DNA of 64,000 nt from an uncultured Chloroflexia bacterium (GTDB taxonomy: Bacteria; Chloroflexota; Limnocylindria; Limnocylindrales; CSP1-4). Positions 918-11,067 of the stretch are shown here, one piece after another; the stretch's first letter is position 1; the number at the start of each line of letters is the position of its first letter. The position numbers were made by a program, and so were the translations under genes. The stretch lies in assembly GCA_963781705.1 (NCBI GenBank), contig CAWAGP010000010.1, forward strand, positions 746,767 to 810,766, read 5' to 3'. The notes beneath the pieces are model-generated. The model worked only from the letters and a program-made list of their open reading frames with translations. It was not told the DNA's origin and ran no database searches.

Positions 918-1579
918 CTCGGCCGGCTCGCACGGGCGATGGCGGGCAGCGTCGCCAGCGCGCCCAGCCCGATGCCGGCCAGCAGCAGCGGCCAGCCGTT
1001 CCACGGACCCAGGTCGCCGGCCAGCACGCGCGGGCCGTCGACGAGAAAGCTGATGACCACGAGTGGCGCGCCGGCCACCGCCGTCGCGAGCTGCACAGGC
1101 CGCACCACGATGCGGTAGCCGGCGCGCAGGCGGTACGCCGCGAACAGTCCGCCGCCGATCAACGCGATGCTCACCGACACCGGCGCCCACACCGGGCCGA
1201 CCCAGGTCAGCGGCACGAGGAAGAGCACGTCCCAGGTCAGCAGTGATGGGGGCCAGCCGATGATCGCGAACAGGCCGACGTAGTAGACGATGTCCCACGT
1301 CCCGAAGACGACGGCCGTCCATGCGAACTTTTCCAGGCCCGACCCACCGGCCAGCCAGCCCACCGCGGCGATCATCACCAGCGTCGCCAGTTCACGGACC
1401 GCCTCGGTGGCAAGGAGCTGGTCGAGGTCGCCGACCACACCGGTTGGGACAGCCGAAACGCCGATGCCCAGCGCCCCGCGCAGGTAGACGACGACGGCCG
1501 CCTCGAGATAACCCATGGCGACCGAGTAGGCGATCACGCCAACGGCGACCGAGCGGAAGGAGGCCTGTCGCGTCAGCAT
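911..1579 (-). CDS. Integral membrane protein, function unknown (about 6 TM segments)
   Basis: Internal ATG at 1579 (MLTRQASFRS...) precedes repeated hydrophobic segments. The part of the ORF upstream of this ATG is Pro/Ser/Arg-rich and overlaps the next gene. It converges on gatD with a 7-nt overlap. Confidence 0.6.
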   Translation of the reverse strand: MLTRQASFRSVAVGVIAYSVAMGYLEAAVVVYLRGALGIGVSAVPTGVVGDLDQLLATEAVRELATLVMIAAVGWLAGGSGLEKFAWTAVVFGTWDIVYYVGLFAIIGWPPSLLTWDVLFLVPLTWVGPVWAPVSVSIALIGGGLFAAYRLRAGYRIVVRPVQLATAVAGAPLVVISFLVDGPRVLAGDLGPWNGWPLLLAGIGLGALATLPAIARASRPSQ

Positions 1580-1640
1580 GGACGCGCCAATTGTCGCTGC
1601 CGCACGCTGCGCGCGGCGCAGAACTGGCCGGTGGTCGACG

Positions 1641-1898
1641 CTAGGTTGGCTCGTCGACGTCGATGGCGACCACGCGGCACGCCCAGGGATCGTCGTCGAC
1701 CGGGGTGAATAGGAGTCGAGCACCCTCGGCTGGGGTGCCGCGGGAGAGTTCGGGCCAGTAGAAGTTGACCGATTCGGGCGCCACGTCCGATTCATCGCCC
1801 AGCTCCAGGTGGACGGCCGAGACGCGCCGCGCGCCGGCGGCCGTGGCGCGCTCGATGACCACCTCGAGGAGCTGCCGCGTCACGCCCGCTTCGTGCAT
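1641..1898 (-). CDS. hypA: HypA-like hydrogenase nickel-insertion protein lacking the zinc-ribbon domain (85 aa)
   Basis: Starts MHEAGVTRQLLEVVIERA..., matching the HypA MHE nickel-binding N-terminus and first helix. Ends ...ARLLFTPVDDDPWACRVVAIDVDEPT, with only one Cys and no CxxC...CxxC. Its ATG overlaps the protease stop (TGATG). Confidence 0.7.
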   Translation of the reverse strand: MHEAGVTRQLLEVVIERATAAGARRVSAVHLELGDESDVAPESVNFYWPELSRGTPAEGARLLFTPVDDDPWACRVVAIDVDEPT

Positions 1899-2440
1899 CA
1901 GTACTCGCGGTGAGGCCGTCGAGAGAGCACGCGGACGATCTGCTCGACGGCCGGCCCCACGGCCGCCTCGACCGGCGGCGACATCGCCTCGCCGAATTCG
2001 TCGACCTTTGACACGCTGATGCCGACCACGGTCAGTTGTCCGGGCAGCTCGGCGCCGAGCCCGCGCCCGGCCGCGATGGCAGCCGCGAGCGTGGCGTCGT
2101 GGGCAGAATCGAGGTGACCGGCCAGCCGGCTGTCGACACTGGCGAATGGCCTTGCCCAAACGGTGCCCGGGGCCTGGCCGTCGAGACTCGCGTCGGCGAG
2201 CACGGCGCGCTGGTAGCCGATCAGTCGTTCCATCAGCCGTAGGCCGCCGACCGACAGCTCGTCGATTTCCACCGGTCCGACCGCGCTCCGAATCTCTGCG
2301 TCGTTTGCCAGGAGGTGCTCGAGTTCGTGAGCAACGCGCCAGCCGACACCATCGTCACCCATGATCGGGTTGCCCAGGCCGATGACGAGCGTGCGCGGCG
2401 CCACGGCCGACGGTCCGCTAGACGCCTCGGCGTACAACAT
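1898..2440 (-). CDS. Hydrogenase maturation endopeptidase (HycI/HoxW/FrhD family)
   Basis: LVIGLGNPIMGDDGVGWRVAHEL and the later GHLDSAHD motif match the [NiFe]-hydrogenase C-terminal protease family. ATG at 2440 was chosen. It lies directly downstream of the large subunit. Confidence 0.85.
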   Translation of the reverse strand: MLYAEASSGPSAVAPRTLVIGLGNPIMGDDGVGWRVAHELEHLLANDAEIRSAVGPVEIDELSVGGLRLMERLIGYQRAVLADASLDGQAPGTVWARPFASVDSRLAGHLDSAHDATLAAAIAAGRGLGAELPGQLTVVGISVSKVDEFGEAMSPPVEAAVGPAVEQIVRVLSRRPHREY

Positions 2441-3900
2441 CGATCGTCTCGCCCGCTCTGTTGCGCAGGGTGACCTCGAGCGGCATCTGTCCCGGCAGGC
2501 TGTGCGTCGCGCAGCCGAAAGCACGGGTCATAGGCGCGGAAGGCCATCTCGATCCGGTCGAGCAGGCCGTGGTCGACGACCACGCCGTGGTGGATCAGGC
2601 CACGTGCCGCGCGGTCGATCGACATCGCGATCGGGGCGTGGTTGTTGGTCGTGCCGACGATCAGGTTGACGCGCGTGATCAGTCCGTTCTCGTCGGTCCA
2701 ATAGTGGTGGGTCAGCGAGCCGCGCGGCGCCTCGACCGTGCCCACGCCTTCTCCCGGCGCCTGTGTCGGCAGTGCCCGGACGTCGGTGGAGGTGATGTCT
2801 GGGTCGGCCAACAACTCTTGCATGCGCTCGGCCGCATAGAGCATCTCGATCAGGCGCGCCCAATGCGTTGCGCCGCGCTGGTGGACCGGCTGACGGTGGC
2901 CGTTGATCGCCGGCGCAAGGGTGGCGAAGAAGCGTTCGTACTCCGCCTGGGCGCGCGGCGTCGCCATACCGGTGGCCGCGTTGAGCCGGCCCAGCGGACC
3001 GACGCAGTAGACGCCCGAGTCGCGCCCGTCGACGAAGCCCTTCCAGCCGACCTTGCGCAGGTATGGGAACTTGAGGAATGTCCACGGCTCGACGTGCTCA
3101 GCGATCCATTCCTGGTAATCGGCCGGCGCATAGGTGCCGAACTCACTGCCATCGGGCGCGACCACGCGCATGCGACCGTCGTAGAACGCGACGCGGCCGC
3201 CCTCGTCGACTAACCCGGCGTAGTAGGTCTCGTGGCGGAACAGGTCACCCAGCAGGAGGTCGTGCATCTCGCTGTTGCTGATCAGCTTGCCGAACAGGTC
3301 GAGGCTGAAACCTGCGAAATCGACCATCGCCGCAGCGATCTCGGAGATCTCGTCACGCTCGGCGACGGTGATGCCCTTGGTCAGCCCACCGGGCACCGAC
3401 GTGCACGGGTGGATGCGCCGGCCGCCGATCAGCTCGACCACCCGGTGGCCGCCGCGGCGCGTCTCGATCACCCGGCCGCCGACTTCCAGCCCGACCTTGC
3501 GAATTACGCCCAACAGATTGCGCTCGGCCGGCGGAGTGTCGGGACCCAGGATCACGTCGGGTCCGCCCAGCACGTAGAAGTGGGTCGCGTGGTCGGTCAC
3601 GTAGAAGGCGCTGAACATCAGTTCGCGCAGCAGCCGCGCCGGCCGCGGCGGCTCGATGCCGTAGACGGCGTCGGCCGCCTTGGCCGCGGCCAGGTGGTGC
3701 GCCTCCGGGCACACGCCGCAGATGCGGTTGGTTAGGACCGGCATCTCCTCGACCGGCCGGCCGATGCAGAACGACTCGAACCCGCGCAGCTCGGGCACCT
3801 GGAAGTAGGTGCGCTCGACGTCGCCCTGATCGTCAAGGAAGATCTCGATCTTGCCGTGTCCCTCGAGGCGCGTGATGGGGTCGATCGTCAGGCGCGTCAT
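2418..3900 (-). CDS. mvhA: [NiFe]-hydrogenase large subunit, group 3c MvhA-like; interrupted as assembled by a 1-nt frameshift at 2518-2520 within the C-terminal DPCxxCxxH motif
   Basis: N-terminal MTRLTIDPITRLEGHGK and RICGVCPEAHH (the N-terminal Ni-binding CxxC). The frame reads ...AFRAYDPCF, then runs out of frame to a stop at 2233. Removing one T of the TTT run (plus-strand AAA 2518-2520) gives DPCFGCATHSLPGQMPLEVTLRNRAGETIDVVRRGV*, with the stop at 2418-2420. Confidence 0.85.
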
Positions 3901-4913
3901 GACGTGCGGCTCTCGGTCGTCGCGGCCACTCGCGCGGATCTCGCGCCGCGCAGCAGCGAGCCGGCCAGGCTGAATCGATAGAACTGACCGACCGGATCGG
4001 GCAGGCCGTCGAGGATGCGATCGATGTCGTCGGGCTCGCTGGCGTCGATCGGCGAAGCGAAGGCCGAGAGGAGGCGGGCGCCGAAGTCCGTTACGCCGTC
4101 GGCCGGGCCGTAGCAGCCAATGCACGGCGCGCCGGCGAGCGGGCACTTCGCGCCGCAGCCATCGCGGGTGGCTGGGCCGTTGCACGGGAGGCCCTGCTCG
4201 AGCAGGCATGCGTCCGCGTCGATCGAGGCCAATTGCTGGACGCGGCTGAACTGCTCGAGTCGCTTGGTCGAACGGTCGCGCCGACATTCGTCGCACACGG
4301 TCGAGTGGCCCGCTCCCAGCACGGCGCCATGCGGCGGCAGCGGAGCCGCACCATCAAGGGCGGCACCCAGCAGGCCCAGCACGTCGGCGATTCGTTCCGT
4401 CTCCGGCGGACAGCCGGGTACGCGATAGTCGACCTCGACGACCTGATCGAGGGTCTGCAGCAGCGGCTCCAGCGTGGGCAGCTCGAGTTCGCCGCTGGGC
4501 GCGTCGAACCGGCTCGTCGGGCGGACGTGATCGGGGTTGTCGGTGCTCGGCGTTTCGAAGACGACATCGAGCATGGACTCGGTGGGAGCGAGGTTGGCCA
4601 GTCCCGGAATGCAGCCTTCGTTGGCGCACGAGCCGAACGCGACGAGGATGGCCGACTTCTGGCGCAGCAGGCGGGCCAGATGCGCGTTCTCGCTGGTGCG
4701 GATGCCGCCCGAGAACAGGGTCACGTCGATCGAGGCGTCCGGCATGGCCTCCAGATCAGCGTACTTGGTGTCCATGACCGCCGGCCAGAAAACCGGTTCG
4801 AAGTGCTCAACAAAGTCGAGGATCGCCTCGTGGAGGTTGAGCACAGCCACGTCGCAGCCGCCGCAAGCGGACGCCCAGTACATCGCGAAACGGTGGCGAC
4901 GCTGCTCGCTCAC
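3897..4913 (-). CDS. mvhG: [NiFe]-hydrogenase small subunit, group 3c MvhG-like
   Basis: AMYWASACGGCDVAVL, FGSCANEGCIPG and the distal cluster Cys motifs (GCPPE; CNGPATRDGCGAKCP; PCIGCYGP) match small subunits. Has GTGA and ATGA overlaps with its neighbours. Confidence 0.9.
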   Translation of the reverse strand: MSEQRRHRFAMYWASACGGCDVAVLNLHEAILDFVEHFEPVFWPAVMDTKYADLEAMPDASIDVTLFSGGIRTSENAHLARLLRQKSAILVAFGSCANEGCIPGLANLAPTESMLDVVFETPSTDNPDHVRPTSRFDAPSGELELPTLEPLLQTLDQVVEVDYRVPGCPPETERIADVLGLLGAALDGAAPLPPHGAVLGAGHSTVCDECRRDRSTKRLEQFSRVQQLASIDADACLLEQGLPCNGPATRDGCGAKCPLAGAPCIGCYGPADGVTDFGARLLSAFASPIDASEPDDIDRILDGLPDPVGQFYRFSLAGSLLRGARSARVAATTESRTS

Positions 4914-5440
4914 GCGGGCACCTCCTCGAGCGCCGCCACCTGCCCGGGCAGATCCGCTGCGGCCGGCTCGGCAGCGGCCTCGCCGGCCTCGGTCAGTTTC
5001 GCCAGGCCGGCGCGCCGGTCCCAGTCGAGCGGTCCGAGGGCGCGCACCTCATCCACGATGCGCGTGAACGCGTCGGCCAGTTGCTGACCCTCGGCGGCGC
5101 TGGCGTAGACGCGTTGGAAGCGCTCTGGCTCGAGACCCAGGCCGGTGAGCACGCGCCGCATGAGCTGGAAGCGCCGCAGTGCCTTCACGTTCTGGATCCG
5201 ATAGTGGCAGTCGGCAGGCCAGCAGCCGGTCATCACCACGCCGTCCGCGCCGCTGGCGATGGCCTTCAGCACGAAGAGCGGATCGAGCCTGCCCGAGCAC
5301 ATCAGCCGGATCAGCCGAACGTTCGGCGGGTACTTGATGCGGGCCGTACCGGCCAGGTCGGCCGCACGGTAGCTGCACCAGTTACAGGTGAAGGCGATGA
5401 TCACCGGTTCATAGGCGACGACCGCCGACGATTCGCTCAC
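4910..5440 (-). CDS. mvhD: Methyl-viologen-reducing hydrogenase delta subunit MvhD-like protein
   Basis: IIAFTCNWCSYRAADLAG...IRLMCSGRLDP...GADGVVMTGCWPADCHY is the MvhD/FlpD signature. A GTG start at 5440 overlaps the hdrA stop (GTGA). Confidence 0.88.
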   Translation of the reverse strand: MSESSAVVAYEPVIIAFTCNWCSYRAADLAGTARIKYPPNVRLIRLMCSGRLDPLFVLKAIASGADGVVMTGCWPADCHYRIQNVKALRRFQLMRRVLTGLGLEPERFQRVYASAAEGQQLADAFTRIVDEVRALGPLDWDRRAGLAKLTEAGEAAAEPAAADLPGQVAALEEVPA

Positions 5441-7455
5441 GCGGCCACCGGCGATCGGTCCGATAGCAGACCAGCGATCTGGCCGAGGATCATGTCGTTG
5501 GTGAAGCCGGTGGCACTGATCGCGTTCGCCGGGCAGGCCGCGGCACAAACGCCGCAGCCCTGGCAGAGCGCCGCATTCACCTCGGTGACCGATCGGTCCT
5601 CGTCGAAGGTGATGGCACTGAACGGGCACAGGTCGTTACAGATGCGGCAGCCGGAGCACTTGTCTGCGTCCACCACCGCCGCGAGCGGCTCGAGGGCCAT
5701 CTCGCGCTGCTGGATGCGGCCCAGGATGCGCGCGGCCGCGGCCGCACCGCTCGACACGCTCGCCGGAATGTCGCGCGGACCGAGCGCGCAGCCCGCCGCA
5801 AAGACGCCGTCGGTCATCGTCGCGACGGGGTCGAGCTTGGGGTGGCGCTCGATGATCCAACCGTCGGAGCTGCAGGTGATGCCAAACCGGCGGGCGACCT
5901 CGTGCGCATCCGGCTGCGGCTGCAGGCCGACCGAGAGCACGACCATGTCGACCGGGATGCGTCGCTGACGGCCGGCCAGCGTGTCTTCCGCCTGGACGAT
6001 CAGGCGGCCATCCTGGGCCGCCTCGTCCGGCCAGCGCAACACGTCGGTGACCTCGGCCACGCGACCGCGGATGAACTGGGTGCCCTCTGCCTGGACGCGC
6101 TGGTAGAACTCGTCGAACGCCTTCCCCGGCGCGCGGATGTCGATGTAGAACTCGTACACCGTCGCGTCAGTGTGCTCGCGCACCAGGTGGGCGAACTTCA
6201 TGCTCTGCATGCAGCAGATCGCCGAGCAGTAGTTGTTGTAGTTCTGGTCGCGGCTGCCGACGCAGTGGACGATGGCCACCGCGCTTGGCTCGGTCACGCC
6301 GTCGCGCAGCACGATCCTGCCGCCGGTCGGTCCGCTGGCATTACTCATCCGCTCGAACTCGAGGCTGGTGAAGACGTTTGCCAGGCGGCCGTAGCCGTAC
6401 TGCTCGATGCGCCGCGCGTCGAATGTCTCGAAGCCCGTGGCGAGGACGATGTTGCCCACATTCAAGGTGATCTCTTCGGGCTGCTGGTCCAGCCTGATCG
6501 CCTGGGGCGGGCAAAGCTTTTCGCACGCCTTGCACTTGCCGTTCTCGAAGTAGATGCACGCCTGCGGATCAAGTACCGGGTACTTGGGCACGGCCTGCGG
6601 GAACGGCCGATAGATTGCCTTGCGATAGCCGATGCCGGCCTGGTAGGCGTTGTCGACGACGACCGCCGGGCACTTCTCCTCGCAGATGCCGCAGCCGGTG
6701 CACGTGTCCGTGTCGACGTAGCGCGGCCGGTGGAGCACCTTGACCTCGAAGTTGCCGACGTAGCCCGAAACCTCGGTGACCTCGCTCCAGGTGTGCAGGG
6801 TGATGTTCGGGTGAGCGCCGGCGGTGACCATGCGCGGCGTCAGGATGCACGCGGCGCAGTCGAGCGTCGGGAAGGTCTTGTCGAACTGCGCCATGTGGCC
6901 GCCGATCGACGGCTCGCGCTCGACCAGGTGCACCGGGAAGCCGGCGTCAGCGATCTCCAGCGCAGCGGAGATGCCGGCGATACCGCCGCCGACGACGAGT
7001 GTGGCGTCGTTGATCGGCACCCTGAGTGGCTCCAGCGGGACCTGCTCACGCACCCGCAGCACGCCGCCGGCGACGATCGCCTTGGCCTTGGCCGTGGCCG
7101 CGACCTTGTCGGTGTGGACCCACGAGTCCTGCTCGCGGATGGACACCAGGTCACACAGGTACGGGTTGAGGCCGGCCTGCTCGCACGCCCCGCGGAACGT
7201 CTTCTCGTGCATGTGCGGCGAGCAGGCCGCCACGACGACGCGCTCCAGGCCCAGCTCGTGGATGTCGTTCTCGATCAGTTCCTGGCCGAGGCTCGAGCAC
7301 ATGAACGGGTAGTCGCGGGCTACCACGACGCCCTGACCGGCGAGATGTTCGGCGGCCCAGTCACGCACCTCTGCGACGTCGACCGTGCCGGCGATGTTCG
7401 TGCCGCAGTGGCACACATAGACCCCGGTGCGCGGGTTGTCTGCCGCCGCGGTCAT
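5437..7455 (-). CDS. hdrA: Heterodisulfide reductase subunit A-like FAD/FeS protein
   Basis: 672 aa. Contains VYVCHCGTNIAG, the GGGIAGISAAL FAD fold, an inserted ferredoxin domain (CTGCGICEEKCP, CKACEKLCP) and a C-terminal 2x[4Fe-4S] domain (CSGCRICNDLCP, CQGCGVCAAACP). Confidence 0.93.
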   Translation of the reverse strand: MTAAADNPRTGVYVCHCGTNIAGTVDVAEVRDWAAEHLAGQGVVVARDYPFMCSSLGQELIENDIHELGLERVVVAACSPHMHEKTFRGACEQAGLNPYLCDLVSIREQDSWVHTDKVAATAKAKAIVAGGVLRVREQVPLEPLRVPINDATLVVGGGIAGISAALEIADAGFPVHLVEREPSIGGHMAQFDKTFPTLDCAACILTPRMVTAGAHPNITLHTWSEVTEVSGYVGNFEVKVLHRPRYVDTDTCTGCGICEEKCPAVVVDNAYQAGIGYRKAIYRPFPQAVPKYPVLDPQACIYFENGKCKACEKLCPPQAIRLDQQPEEITLNVGNIVLATGFETFDARRIEQYGYGRLANVFTSLEFERMSNASGPTGGRIVLRDGVTEPSAVAIVHCVGSRDQNYNNYCSAICCMQSMKFAHLVREHTDATVYEFYIDIRAPGKAFDEFYQRVQAEGTQFIRGRVAEVTDVLRWPDEAAQDGRLIVQAEDTLAGRQRRIPVDMVVLSVGLQPQPDAHEVARRFGITCSSDGWIIERHPKLDPVATMTDGVFAAGCALGPRDIPASVSSGAAAAARILGRIQQREMALEPLAAVVDADKCSGCRICNDLCPFSAITFDEDRSVTEVNAALCQGCGVCAAACPANAISATGFTNDMILGQIAGLLSDRSPVAA

Positions 7456-9098
7456 CGCTTGACCTCGAGCGCCTGCGGCATGGGCAGCCCCTTTGGCCGC
7501 TTCTGCCGGTGCGTGTCATGGCCGCCGCCCGGCGCGGTCGTTCCGGTCGTCTCCGGCGCCACGTCCAGGCCGATGTGCCGCAGGGCGGCGCCGGCCGACA
7601 CGATCTCGTTGCCGACGCCGACGTCCGCCGGCGGCAGGCCAAAGGCGAGGCCCATCAGCTGGGTGAAGAAGAGGATCGGTACGTGGTAATTCGTCCCGAA
7701 GTGGCGATCCATCTCGCCCTGGTAGGCGTCGACGTTCATCTGGCACATCGGGCACACCGTCGCCAGCAGGTCGGCGCTCTGTCGCTCAGCGCCGTCGACG
7801 ATGCGCCGGATCAGCTCCCACGCAGTGGTCGGGCTGATCTGCGTCATGTGCCCGCCGCAGCACGCCGTGCGCTGCGTGAAGTCGACCACCTCAGCGCCCA
7901 ATGCGGCGAGCAACTGGTCGAGCATGTGCGGCTGCTCGCGCGCCGCCCAGCGGCGGTCGTAATCGGGGCGCGAGACGAGGCAGCCAAGGTAGGGCGCGAC
8001 CCGCAGGCCGTTCAGCGGGCGCGTGACATGGGCGGCAATCTCGTCCAGGCCGACATCCTCGATGAGCACCTCGAGCAGGTGGCGCACCCGGACCGCGCCC
8101 GGCGTGTAGTGCAGCCCGTCGGCCGCAAGGACCGAGTTGAGGCGGTCACGGAAGGCGGGATCGGTACGCGTGTAGCGGTCGGTCTTGGTCAGGTTGACGT
8201 AGCAGGCGCTGCACGGCGCGACGAGCGTCTGCGCGCCATCACGCTGCTGCTCCGCGAGCGCCAGGTTGCGGCCGATCAGCGCATGGCCGCGCAGCGGGCT
8301 GAGCGTCAGGTACTCCGTGGCGCCGCAGCAGTTCCAGTCGTCGATCTCGCGCAGCTGAATGCCGAGCGGCTCGACGATCGCCGCGAGCGACTCAGCGTAG
8401 GCGCGCGCGCTGCCCTCGAGCGAGCAGCCCGGGTAGTAGAGGTACTCGGTCACGCCACTGCGTCCGGATGGGGCGTCGCCAGCCTCGATCTCGCCTGCTC
8501 GGGCGAGGATCGCGCGGACTCCGGCCACGCCGCGGATGCGCTGTGGCATGAAGCCCATGCGGCCCTTGGCCAGCATGGCCATGCCCATCGGCACCAGCCC
8601 GGGCAGGCGCAGCGGATGGTGACGCAGGTAGTGCCGCGCAACCAGGCCCATCTCATAGCTGCGGCCGTAGCGGGCGATGTTGGCCACGAAGGTGTGCGAG
8701 AAGTCGGCGCCGGTCCGCTCCGGTGCTACTCCCTCTCGCTCGGCAATCGACTTGATCGCGTACATCACGTCGGGAATGTGGATCTCCTGCGGGCAGCGGA
8801 TCGCGCAGAAGTAGCACGACAGGCACATCCACGGCGTGTTGCTGCGCAGCACGTCGTCGCGCAGGCCGGCCAGCACCATCGCGAACAACGCGCGCGGAGT
8901 GTGGTCCATGTCCGCGGCCGACGGACACGATCCGCCGCACGTGCCGCATTGGATGCAGCGCTCGAGTCCGGTCTCGACTGCCGCGGCGGCTCTCACTTCG
9001 TCGAGGAAGCGCGGGGCCGGCAGCCCGGGTCGCGTTCCAGGTGCGCCGGTATTCACTGGTGCGCCGGCATTCCCTGCCACTGCGTCCACGGTCGGCAC
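7452..9098 (-). CDS. hdrCB: Fused heterodisulfide reductase HdrC-HdrB-like protein (2x[4Fe-4S] ferredoxin domain plus two CCG domains)
   Basis: CIQCGTCGGSCP and CLSCYFCAIRCP (HdrC-like) are followed in the same uninterrupted frame by YYPGCS...DWNCCGA and TACCGGH (HdrB CCG domains). The start is uncertain: GTG 9098 or 9089, just after the ACT gene stop. An ATGA overlap joins it to hdrA. Confidence 0.85.
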   Translation of the reverse strand: MPTVDAVAGNAGAPVNTGAPGTRPGLPAPRFLDEVRAAAAVETGLERCIQCGTCGGSCPSAADMDHTPRALFAMVLAGLRDDVLRSNTPWMCLSCYFCAIRCPQEIHIPDVMYAIKSIAEREGVAPERTGADFSHTFVANIARYGRSYEMGLVARHYLRHHPLRLPGLVPMGMAMLAKGRMGFMPQRIRGVAGVRAILARAGEIEAGDAPSGRSGVTEYLYYPGCSLEGSARAYAESLAAIVEPLGIQLREIDDWNCCGATEYLTLSPLRGHALIGRNLALAEQQRDGAQTLVAPCSACYVNLTKTDRYTRTDPAFRDRLNSVLAADGLHYTPGAVRVRHLLEVLIEDVGLDEIAAHVTRPLNGLRVAPYLGCLVSRPDYDRRWAAREQPHMLDQLLAALGAEVVDFTQRTACCGGHMTQISPTTAWELIRRIVDGAERQSADLLATVCPMCQMNVDAYQGEMDRHFGTNYHVPILFFTQLMGLAFGLPPADVGVGNEIVSAGAALRHIGLDVAPETTGTTAPGGGHDTHRQKRPKGLPMPQALEVKR

Positions 9099-9103
9099 CT
9101 GGC

Positions 9104-9505
9104 TTACGGCACGCCCGCCAATTGCGCCTGGGTCAGCGCGGCTCTCGCCTGGACCTCGTCGTCGACGGTGAAGGCCATCTCGAGCACGCCTTCGCGCCGG
9201 CCGATGCACATCGTGCCGAGCACGTTCACGCCCGCGTTGGCCAGGCGTTCGGTCACGTCGGCGAGTCCGCCCGGCTGGTCGAGTACATCGACGACGACGG
9301 CGGCGCCCTCGATGAAGTCGTGGCCCAGGCCGCGCAGTACCTCGCGCGCGGCGTCGTCGGACGTCGTCATGAATGCGCAGGCCACGGAACCGGTGCCGGC
9401 ACATGAGATGTGCGTGATGTTGATGCCGCGCGCGCCCATTGATCGGGCAAGGTGGGCGAGCTCGCCGGGCCGGTTGTCGAGTTGAACCACGAACTGGCGC
9501 TGCAT
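9104..9505 (-). CDS. Tandem ACT-domain protein (putative small-molecule-binding regulator)
   Basis: MQRQFVVQLDNRPGELAHLARSMGARGINI and a second VDVLDQPGGLADVTERLANAGVNV repeat are typical ACT folds. A GGAGG lies 8 nt upstream of ATG 9505. First gene of the hdr/mvh operon. Confidence 0.75.
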   Translation of the reverse strand: MQRQFVVQLDNRPGELAHLARSMGARGINITHISCAGTGSVACAFMTTSDDAAREVLRGLGHDFIEGAAVVVDVLDQPGGLADVTERLANAGVNVLGTMCIGRREGVLEMAFTVDDEVQARAALTQAQLAGVP

Positions 9506-9735
9506 CCAAGCCTCCGTCGAACCTGAGAGACTCCGTTCGAATCGGCCGAACAACCGCTGCCGTGACGACACGCACGGTCACCACGTGCAACCGCTGGCAG
9601 CGTCGGCCGAACCGGCCGTGGGCGACTAGGGCCGTAGTGCCCGTCAGGTCGTGCCATTGCTCACGTGCCTCTGGGCCTCCGCGCGAGGCTGGTGGCCCTT
9701 GGGCGTCCTCCGTCGGACACCGATATGCTCGTCGC

Positions 9736-11067
9736 ATGCCCGACGAAGCCGCCCGGACGGGTCTCGCGGTTCTCGACATGGCGCGCGCCGAGCGCTTCGC
9801 CGAGATCGCCGGTATGTTCCTTCCGCAGCTGCGGGCGATGGTCTCGGCCGGAGCCGTCGAGGCCGCGTGGAACGCGGTGGTGAGCGAACTCGGAGCCCTC
9901 AGTTCCGCAGGCACACCGGTCACCGAGGAGAGTGCGGCCGGCGCGACCGTCGTCAAGATCCCGCTGACGTTCGAGCACGGCGCCAGAACACTCGTCGTCA
10001 GCGTGAGCGCGTCGGGTGGCCTGTCTGGCGTCCAGGTCGCTTCGGCCGAGGCCGCCCGGCCGGTTAGCCCGTGGCTGCCGCCCACCTACGCCGATCCGGG
10101 AGCCTTCGACGAGCATGACGTTGTCGTCGGCGATGGCCCGCTGACGGTGCCGGGCACGATGAGCGTGCCCCATGGCGCCGGCCCCTTCGCCGGGATCGTG
10201 TTGCTGTCGGGATCCGGCCCGAACGACCGCGACGGCACGGTCGGGCGCAACAAGCCGCTCAAGGACGTGGCATGGGGCCTTGCCAGCCGTGGCATAGCCG
10301 TACTACGTTTCGACAAGGTCACCCTGGCCCATCCCGCCGAGGTCATGAAGCTCGGCGACATCACGCTGAGTGCCGAGTACGGGCAGGCCGCCGCCGCCGT
10401 CCAGCTCCTCCGGCAGCACGCCGGGGTGGACGGTGAGCACGTCTTTCTCCTTGGTCACAGCCTGGGCGGCACCGTCGCCCCGCGCATCGCCGCCGGCGAC
10501 ACGTCGATTGCCGGACTGGTTCTTTTCGCCGGCGGGGCGGCCCCGCTGCAATGGGTGCTCGTCCGCCAGATGCGCTACCTGGCGTCACTGGATCCCGCGT
10601 CGGCGCCCGCGGCCGAGCCGGCGCTGGCTGCCATGACTGAACGGGCAAAGGCGGTCGACAACCCCGATCTGTCGCCGGCGACGCCGAGCGACCAGCTGCC
10701 CTTCGGCCTGCCGGCCTCATATTGGCTGGACCTGCGCGCATACCGTCCGGCACAGGTTGCCGCTTCGCTGGGCCGCCCGATCCTGCTGCTCCAGGGCGGC
10801 CGCGACTACCAGGCGACCGTTGCTGACGACCTGGCCATTTGGCAGGCCGGGCTCGCCGGCACGCCCGATGTCACGATGCGCATCTACCCGGAGGACAATC
10901 ACTTCTTCTTCGTCGGCAGCGGCAAGTCGTCGCCGGCCGAGCTCGAAGCGGTCCAGCACGTCGATCCGGCGGTCGTCTCCGACATCGCCGGTTGGCTGCT
11001 CGCCACCAGCCGCGCCGAGCGACCCACTCGATCCGAATCACGCGATCCGTCCCGGAGGCAGACATGA
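9736..11067 (+). CDS. Alpha/beta hydrolase with an N-terminal DUF3887-like domain
   Basis: GHSLGG nucleophile elbow (LLGHSLGGTVAP) and a late NHFF region with His. ATG 9736 was chosen; the upstream part of the ORF is Arg-rich and overlaps the divergent promoter region. Confidence 0.75.
   Translation: MPDEAARTGLAVLDMARAERFAEIAGMFLPQLRAMVSAGAVEAAWNAVVSELGALSSAGTPVTEESAAGATVVKIPLTFEHGARTLVVSVSASGGLSGVQVASAEAARPVSPWLPPTYADPGAFDEHDVVVGDGPLTVPGTMSVPHGAGPFAGIVLLSGSGPNDRDGTVGRNKPLKDVAWGLASRGIAVLRFDKVTLAHPAEVMKLGDITLSAEYGQAAAAVQLLRQHAGVDGEHVFLLGHSLGGTVAPRIAAGDTSIAGLVLFAGGAAPLQWVLVRQMRYLASLDPASAPAAEPALAAMTERAKAVDNPDLSPATPSDQLPFGLPASYWLDLRAYRPAQVAASLGRPILLLQGGRDYQATVADDLAIWQAGLAGTPDVTMRIYPEDNHFFFVGSGKSSPAELEAVQHVDPAVVSDIAGWLLATSRAERPTRSESRDPSRRQT

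Follow-up and report, generated by a model that had tools for sequence, protein, structure and literature searches.

The question raised by this locus is whether a hydrogenase operon of an uncultured Chloroflexia bacterium truly encodes a fused heterodisulfide reductase (Hdr) subunit. The operon lies in a 64-kb stretch of DNA (G+C content, ∼69%; referred to here as the window) on contig C10 of the source assembly, G000, and comprises nine coding units on the minus strand at 9505-1641, which were delimited by open reading frame (ORF) listing and start-codon inspection and matched individually to Pfam and NCBIfam models. Two features of the sequence as written bear on the question: a single open frame of 548 amino acids (aa) at 9098-7452, in which a Fer4 dicluster (Pfam Fer4_8/17) precedes two CCG domains (2e-23, two stretches) and which a first-pass annotation of this DNA had presented as an HdrC-HdrB fusion, and a frameshift in mvhA, the gene for the hydrogenase large subunit. 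Both were compared with the orthologous operons of three genomes from the same genus (G006, G013, and G001; the congeners) and with further loci (L numbers) and proteins (P numbers). Our answer, based on comparison of sequences and held with a probability of roughly 0.8, is that the operon is orthodox and that both features are one-base insertion or deletion (indel) errors of the assembly. In the organism, hdrC and hdrB would then be separate, translationally coupled genes, and mvhA would be intact.

The 548-aa frame resolves into two recognizable genes. The first, hdrC (9098-8450; HdrC TIGR03290, 1e-22; PDB 8rvv_C, 2.8e-18 over residues 30-126), carries two [4Fe-4S] ferredoxin motifs of the form CxxCxxCxxxCP, and residues 30-128 of the frame align to the cluster-binding part of HdrC. 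The second, hdrB (8453-7452; 8rvu_b, 2.3e-40; 5odc_B, 8.8e-37), corresponds to residues 218-506, which align to the whole of HdrB in both structures; all 10 cysteines of its two CCG domains are present, in register with 8rvu_b, and invariant in the orthologue alignment. Between the two genes the window keeps a GTGA at 8453-8450, in which the hdrB GTG start at 8453 overlaps the native hdrC TGA (8452-8450), the latter now out of frame. A length difference that is not a multiple of three in the poorly conserved hdrC tail (a one-base excess within ∼8454-8500) puts hdrC in the frame of hdrB, and removing one base from this tail would restore the TGA stop. The first-pass annotation had named a hidden stop codon as the sign of an artifactual fusion, and this is the arrangement found.

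Separate genes are also what relatives display. In each of the three congeners, the two genes are read in separate frames, with the stop of hdrC and the start of hdrB sharing a GTGA or ATGA. A broader comparison drew on 80 further loci from a species-representative genome collection, mostly from Anaerolineales and other Chloroflexota, which together provide 79 adjacent hdrC/hdrB pairs. A separate hdrC stop is found in 78 of these, the exception (L055) being an out-of-frame read-through; the spacing is a 4-nucleotide (nt) overlap in 36 loci, 7 nt in 24, and 1 nt in 6. When 5.8 billion proteins were searched with the 548-aa frame, the exact fused protein was found on one contig alone, the source contig, and the ∼120 top relatives considered (identity up to 80%) were stand-alone HdrB proteins of ∼334 aa, with ∼61% of the query covered. 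The sole other match of fused appearance, P0006, is an out-of-frame read-through and itself the product of a frameshift, because its HdrC homology is lost from ∼residue 144. The open frame is thus real in the sequence as written and unique to this assembly: the fused polypeptide is conserved in 0 of 3 congeners and 0 of 79 loci, and the ∼120 relatives likewise include no genuine fused orthologue. As a biological feature, the fusion is not upheld by its phylogenetic distribution.

The second lesion affects mvhA (3900-2418; VhuA, 1.6e-113). The operon had been described as complete, a description that fails at this gene, where one extra base at 2518-2520 (TTT) breaks the C-terminal DPCxxCxxH motif, which reads DPCFRLRDAQ... 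as written. The written frame runs as ...AYDPCFRLRDAQ... and continues through the protease gene. In a three-frame reading, skipping one T of the TTT at 2520-2518 yields DPCFGCATH, followed by 27 further residues and a stop codon at 2420-2418. Orthologues in all three congeners (identities of 91% for G006, 89% for G013, and 85% for G001) read AYDPCFGCATHSLPG.MPLEV... in frame, with AYDPCFGCATH... intact; in the DNA, the window reads TGCTTTCGGCTGC where the congeners read TGCTTCGGTTGC or TGCTTTGGTTGT.

How often reading frames break elsewhere in the source assembly (2.67 Mb, 10 contigs, 90.9% complete) was gauged against G006. Contig 3 of G006 supplied 466 kb of sequence, and 279 kb of this could be aligned to contig C10. 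Stop-to-stop ORFs of G006 with high G+C content at third codon positions were aligned, guided by synteny, to the three frames of the syntenic G000 DNA. The mvhA lesion served as a positive control; it was missed by a stricter version of the alignment and recovered by a relaxed one. This comparison gave ∼10 mid-gene frame switches in ∼97,000 aligned codons for G000, or approximately one per 27 kb, and ∼5 in ∼76,000 codons for G006. The G000 switches on contig C10 fall in ffh (SRP54; ∼999295), purL (845792), purH (851006; two sites), acnA (812188, ∼1.4 kb past the window end), cydB (1059768), an MFS transporter gene (997678), and an F420-dependent LLM oxidoreductase gene (1058565), with a further switch at 1085223. 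In G006, the corresponding genes match curated models over their full length. Six of the seven switch sites inspected are +1 nt in G000, and both operon lesions have the same sign. Essential and core genes cannot all be truly broken in the organism, so the assembly must carry indel errors and should be treated as frameshift-prone; given this rate, and the presence of ffh, purL, purH, and acnA among the affected genes, both operon lesions are most likely errors of the same kind.

Several observations weigh against reading both lesions as errors. At the measured rate, ∼0.28 lesions would be expected in the 7.9 kb of the operon and two are seen (Poisson probability of two or more, ∼0.03); the two are clustered in one operon, and the remainder of the 64-kb window showed no other mid-gene switch. 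Neither indel falls in a long homopolymer. Genuine gene fusions, too, arise from single-base changes immediately ahead of a GTGA overlap, and the order of an HdrC-like part followed by an HdrB-like part is tolerated in HdrD-type proteins. Error and mutation were judged here by comparing assemblies, not sequencing reads, a comparison that gives no direct distinction between the two. Finally, searches of the genome did not recover hypD, hypE, or hypF. Taking these points together, we consider it unlikely that one or both of the lesions are real. Were both real, mvhA would have been recently inactivated and hdrC and hdrB fused, with decay just begun in an operon that is patchy within the genus. 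The clustering of the lesions agrees with such a history, as does the recovery of the orthologous operon from 4 of 25 genus genomes searched, and without HypD, HypE, and HypF the enzyme may be dispensable. On the other hand, the operon has no other damage, being free of stops and keeping its remaining motifs intact; the ratio of nonsynonymous to synonymous substitution rates (dN/dS) between the window and G006 is 0.095 for mvhA and 0.089 for hdrA; and the equivalent +1 switches in ffh, purL, purH, and acnA of the same assembly cannot all be real. We regard this scenario as improbable, and a long-standing decay of the operon was rejected on the low dN/dS values described below together with the lack of other lesions.

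A genuine and very recent fusion, giving an HdrD-like polypeptide and leaving the mvhA frameshift alone as an error, is less probable still. The frame is open across the junction, all cluster-binding cysteines are kept, and the C-then-B domain order matches that of HdrD-type proteins; yet the arrangement is unique among the congeners, the 79 loci, and the ∼120 relatives, its exact product is confined to the source contig, and both the GTGA and the GTG start of hdrB persist. On these comparative grounds, P0006 included, we rejected a real HdrD-like fusion. For mvhA, a programmed +1/−1 ribosomal frameshift might be suspected from the short T run at the site and from the conserved motif encoded in the downstream frame. 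The motif, however, is in frame without any shift in all three congeners, which require no conserved slippery site or structure to explain them; this candidate was also rejected, and its probability is negligible. Indel errors in an orthodox operon therefore remain the reading that we favor for both lesions. A true HdrC-HdrB fusion would have given an aerobe a novel Hdr subunit; the frame is not new in that sense and is best read as an indel error.

Apart from these two lesions, the eight-gene minus-strand Mvh/Hdr set with its named domains is present as the first-pass annotation had described it. Its first gene encodes a tandem-ACT protein (9505-9104, 133 aa; Pfam ACT, 2.3e-14, stretches 4-67 and 69-125, plus an ACT_8 pair), with a GGAGG upstream of its ATG. 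Downstream of hdrC and hdrB follow hdrA (7455-5437, 672 aa), whose product has flavin adenine dinucleotide (FAD) and Fe-S domains (NCBIfam HdrA2, 1.5e-243; Pfam Pyr_redox_2, NAD_binding_8, and Fer4); mvhD (5440-4910, 176 aa; Pfam FlpD, 4.9e-45; VhuD, 5e-35); the small-subunit gene mvhG (4913-3897, 338 aa; VhuG, 1.1e-60, covering 6-281 of 286; Oxidored_q6); and mvhA. The last two genes encode a hydrogenase maturation endopeptidase (2404-1898, 168 aa; TIGR00072, 3.9e-27; Pfam HycI) and a short HypA (1898-1641, 85 aa; Pfam HypA, 2.5e-13, covering 1-67 of 112). The proposed linkage of all genes by overlaps was borne out in part: 4-nt ATGA or GTGA overlaps join hdrB to hdrA (ATGA), hdrA to mvhD, mvhD to mvhG, and mvhG to mvhA, and a 1-nt TGATG overlap joins the protease gene to hypA, whereas ACT and hdrC are separated by a 5-nt gap. 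A scan of window positions 1400-10000 for consensus promoters and terminators gave nothing above shuffled sequences. A 222-aa membrane ORF at 911-1579 was left out of the operon because it has no family match and because the alignment to the syntenic G006 region ends just beyond hypA, at window position 1651. Two further frame changes came to light in the compared genomes. The endopeptidase gene of G013, a few-contig assembly, has a frame switch of its own (L012, G013:C2, 9764-10241), residues 3-35 being read in one frame and 38-161 in another; and at window position ∼100 (G000:C10:746868), a 389-aa stop-to-stop ORF of G006 aligns in two frames (0-120 and 118-389), which may be the mere boundary of two adjacent genes.

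The type of the hydrogenase was assigned from family and PDB best matches and from gene neighbors. Among NCBIfam models, the large subunit scores 379.5 bits with VhuA, versus 150 with ShyA (group 3b) and 145 with FrhA (group 3a). Among PDB chains, MvhA 5odc_F ranks first (366.7 bits, 1.5e-108), followed by other Mvh/Vhu chains; the NAD-reducing group 3d enzyme 5xf9 reaches 315 bits (6.6e-93), so that the margin over group 3d is modest, and group 1 chains score at most 125 bits, with groups 1, 3a, and 3b all far behind. The N-terminal L1 motif, RICGVCPEAH, is present, and the genes for MvhG, MvhD, and HdrA adjoin mvhA through their 4-nt overlaps. Together with the 10 CCG cysteines of HdrB, these matches agree with the type proposed in the first-pass annotation, and we assign the locus to the Mvh/Hdr, or group 3c, type. 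The scores fall short of the NCBIfam equivalog cutoffs for subunits of the CoB-CoM reductase.

Comparison with characterized systems refines this picture. All six subunit types of the MvhADG-HdrABC complex of Methanothermococcus thermolithotrophicus (PDB 5ODC) are also encoded here and can be aligned to it along their full length (HdrB, 8.8e-37; HdrC, 2.8e-16; MvhA as above). In contrast to that system, the host is a bacterium with aerobic respiration and a tricarboxylic acid (TCA) cycle in which CoM-S-S-CoB, the heterodisulfide of coenzymes M and B, is not expected; the operon has the additional ACT and short-HypA genes; and hypDEF were not found in the genome. The 548-aa frame as written shares with HdrD/GlcF/GlpC-type proteins the order of a Fer4 dicluster followed by two CCG domains. 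It differs from them in that its orthologues are two genes, its halves are closest to HdrC and HdrB rather than HdrD, and the join lies in a nonconserved tail directly before an intact hdrB start codon. The HdrA2 model is covered in full by HdrA (810 bits, positions 1-643) and MvhD (160 bits, positions 645-774) combined, which recalls the HdrA2B2C2 of Methanosarcina acetivorans; here, however, HdrA and MvhD are separate genes, and input would come from a NiFe hydrogenase rather than from F420H2 or ferredoxin alone.

By homology to MvhADG-HdrABC, the complex would split H2 at the NiFe site of MvhA and pass electrons by way of the clusters of MvhG and the [2Fe-2S] cluster of MvhD to the FAD of HdrA. 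There, electrons would bifurcate to a low-potential acceptor (ferredoxin) and, via HdrC, to the noncubane clusters of HdrB, which would reduce a disulfide; the reverse reaction would also be possible. On general grounds, the earlier proposal of an acceptor other than CoM-S-S-CoB seems reasonable. The aerobic, TCA-type background described for the window is likewise present: the window encodes SdhA (of the forward type), SdhB, isocitrate dehydrogenase, and SucCD, and the genome has a heme-copper oxidase (COX1). A cytochrome bd subunit gene, cydB, occurs in the syntenic region of G006, its G000 copy being frameshifted.

Pairwise Nei-Gojobori comparisons among four genomes, the window copy included, gave dN/dS values of 0.07 to 0.17 at dS values of ∼0.5 to 1.2 for ACT, hdrC, hdrA, mvhG, and mvhA. 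By these ratios, the operon is under purifying selection and has stayed functional over the whole time in which these species diverged. The order hdrC-hdrB-hdrA-mvhD-mvhG-mvhA(-protease) recurs in at least 60 of the 80 Chloroflexota loci, and the names on database relatives are those of Chloroflexota and Candidatus Limnocylindria/Limnocylindrales. A preprint (West-Roberts et al. 2021, bioRxiv 10.1101/2021.08.23.457424) reports that group 3c NiFe hydrogenases preceded by hdrA2B2C2 rank with the most common hydrogenases of the Chloroflexi supergroup. The operon here has the same gene order as those loci, to which its lineage adds an upstream tandem-ACT gene and a zinc-less HypA gene; no ETF (electron transfer flavoprotein) genes occur here. 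The operon is therefore of an orthodox Chloroflexota kind (Limnocylindria-type class) that is already known, a lineage variant of modest interest. To the many bacteria with Mvh-Hdr complexes, it adds a lineage with ACT and zinc-less HypA accessories.

The ACT gene is associated with the operon in two arrangements. It immediately precedes hdrC in the three congeners (82 to 92% identity) and in 3 of the 80 loci (L039, L044, and L047; 66 to 67% identity); the second arrangement is recognized because three more distant Chloroflexota loci (L073, L076, and L078) carry it, at ∼17.1 to 17.7 kb of the locus, downstream of hypA (42 to 44% identity). With a dN/dS of 0.07 to 0.12 and only generic similarity of its product to solved structures, the ACT gene seems to be a conserved but lineage-restricted accessory. 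The short HypA starts with MHE and so keeps the nickel site, its model match extending over 1-67; it has a single cysteine and no Zn(Cys)4 ribbon (CxxC...CxxC). Zinc-less HypA proteins of 82 to 96 aa are conserved in this lineage, occurring also in G006, G001, L051, L065, and L081, and the canonical CxxC...CxxC form is found in other Chloroflexota loci (L058 and L099).

The part of this analysis worth following up is the state of the maturation genes. The HypD/HypE/HypF machinery is generally regarded as a universal requirement for assembly of the Fe(CN)2CO site. A search of G000 for hypBCDEF recovered a hypC-like gene; hypD and hypF were not found in this 90.9%-complete assembly by hidden Markov model searches or by tblastn with Chloroflexota HypD and HypF, and hypE and hypB gave only weak matches to PurM-like and GTPase paralogues, respectively. 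hypD was found in none of eight genus genomes and is present in other Chloroflexota with the same operon. The hypC gene of G000 (G000:C1:554227-554427) is canonical (MC... start) and follows the genes for a group 3b hydrogenase and the protease of that enzyme; a minus-strand gene for a 254-aa DUF6390 protein (PF19927; G000:C1:553443-554208, L121:8444-9208) begins one base past the hypC stop codon. This second hydrogenase operon, of the group 3b (sulfhydrogenase) type, spans G000:C1:∼553400-559250 (L121:8444-14250) and encodes a fused HydB/HydG-like subunit, the small and large subunits, the protease, the canonical HypC, and DUF6390.

DUF6390 and HypD were never found together in the genomes compared. 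In the order, represented by 151 genomes, HypD occurs in 42 and DUF6390 in 44, no genome having both, and the two sets combined cover almost all of the 88 genomes that encode a NiFe large subunit. Among 401 Chloroflexota genomes, HypD and HypF were each found in 171 and DUF6390 in 43, the last overlapping neither; three unpublished genomes (G432, G342, and G213) contribute to the HypD and HypF counts, and the conclusion of exclusion does not depend on them. By chance, ∼18 overlaps would be expected in the 401 genomes and none was seen, a contrast to which no formal P value is attached, as related genomes are not independent. The pattern extends across at least 17 families, and several of these include genomes of both kinds. 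A well-sampled Chloroflexota group keeps apparently functional group 3 [NiFe]-hydrogenase genes without HypD, HypE, or HypF and always with DUF6390. From this exclusion, the near-full cover of the NiFe-bearing genomes of the order, the position of DUF6390 next to hypC and the 3b operon, and the purifying selection on the window operon, we tentatively suggest that the Mvh-type and 3b hydrogenases of this lineage may be matured without HypD, HypE, and HypF, by a route involving DUF6390. We rate this as possible, though on balance rather doubtful. If the pattern of hydrogenase genes without these Hyp proteins holds, it would point to a novel maturation route or an altered cofactor.

DUF6390 itself had no mention in the literature searched. 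Its AlphaFold model (predicted local distance difference test, 82; predicted template modeling score, 0.84) consists of a helical N-terminal domain, for which no convincing fold match was obtained, and a C-terminal beta-barrel and helix. For the C-terminal domain, HypC was the best structural match in two aligners, with 2z1c and 3vyr as the top PDB folds: Foldseek gave a probability of 1.00 with an E value of 7e-3, and VIA gave a Z score of 5.2 with a root mean square deviation of 2.1 Å over 71 of 71 residues. In a weak profile alignment (E value of 0.063), the invariant Cys162 of DUF6390 falls on Cys2 of HypC; further invariant residues are C30, H133, H136, H223, and C228. BLASTP of the C-terminal domain against the genome's own HypC gave no match, the link being drawn by profile and fold comparison only. 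With scores this modest, the predicted likeness to HypC may be taken as a lead.

The neighbors of DUF6390 in G054 and G116 were considered as possible replacements for the missing enzymes, and none of them is an obvious substitute for HypE or HypF. In genus g8 (L122; G054:C7:66500-86499), the DUF6390 gene lies 10 to 20 kb from a 3b large-subunit gene, the interval holding two 2-oxoacid:ferredoxin oxidoreductase sets, a Lon-like protease, and an amylase; in both G054 and G116, an EamA transporter gene stands directly before DUF6390.

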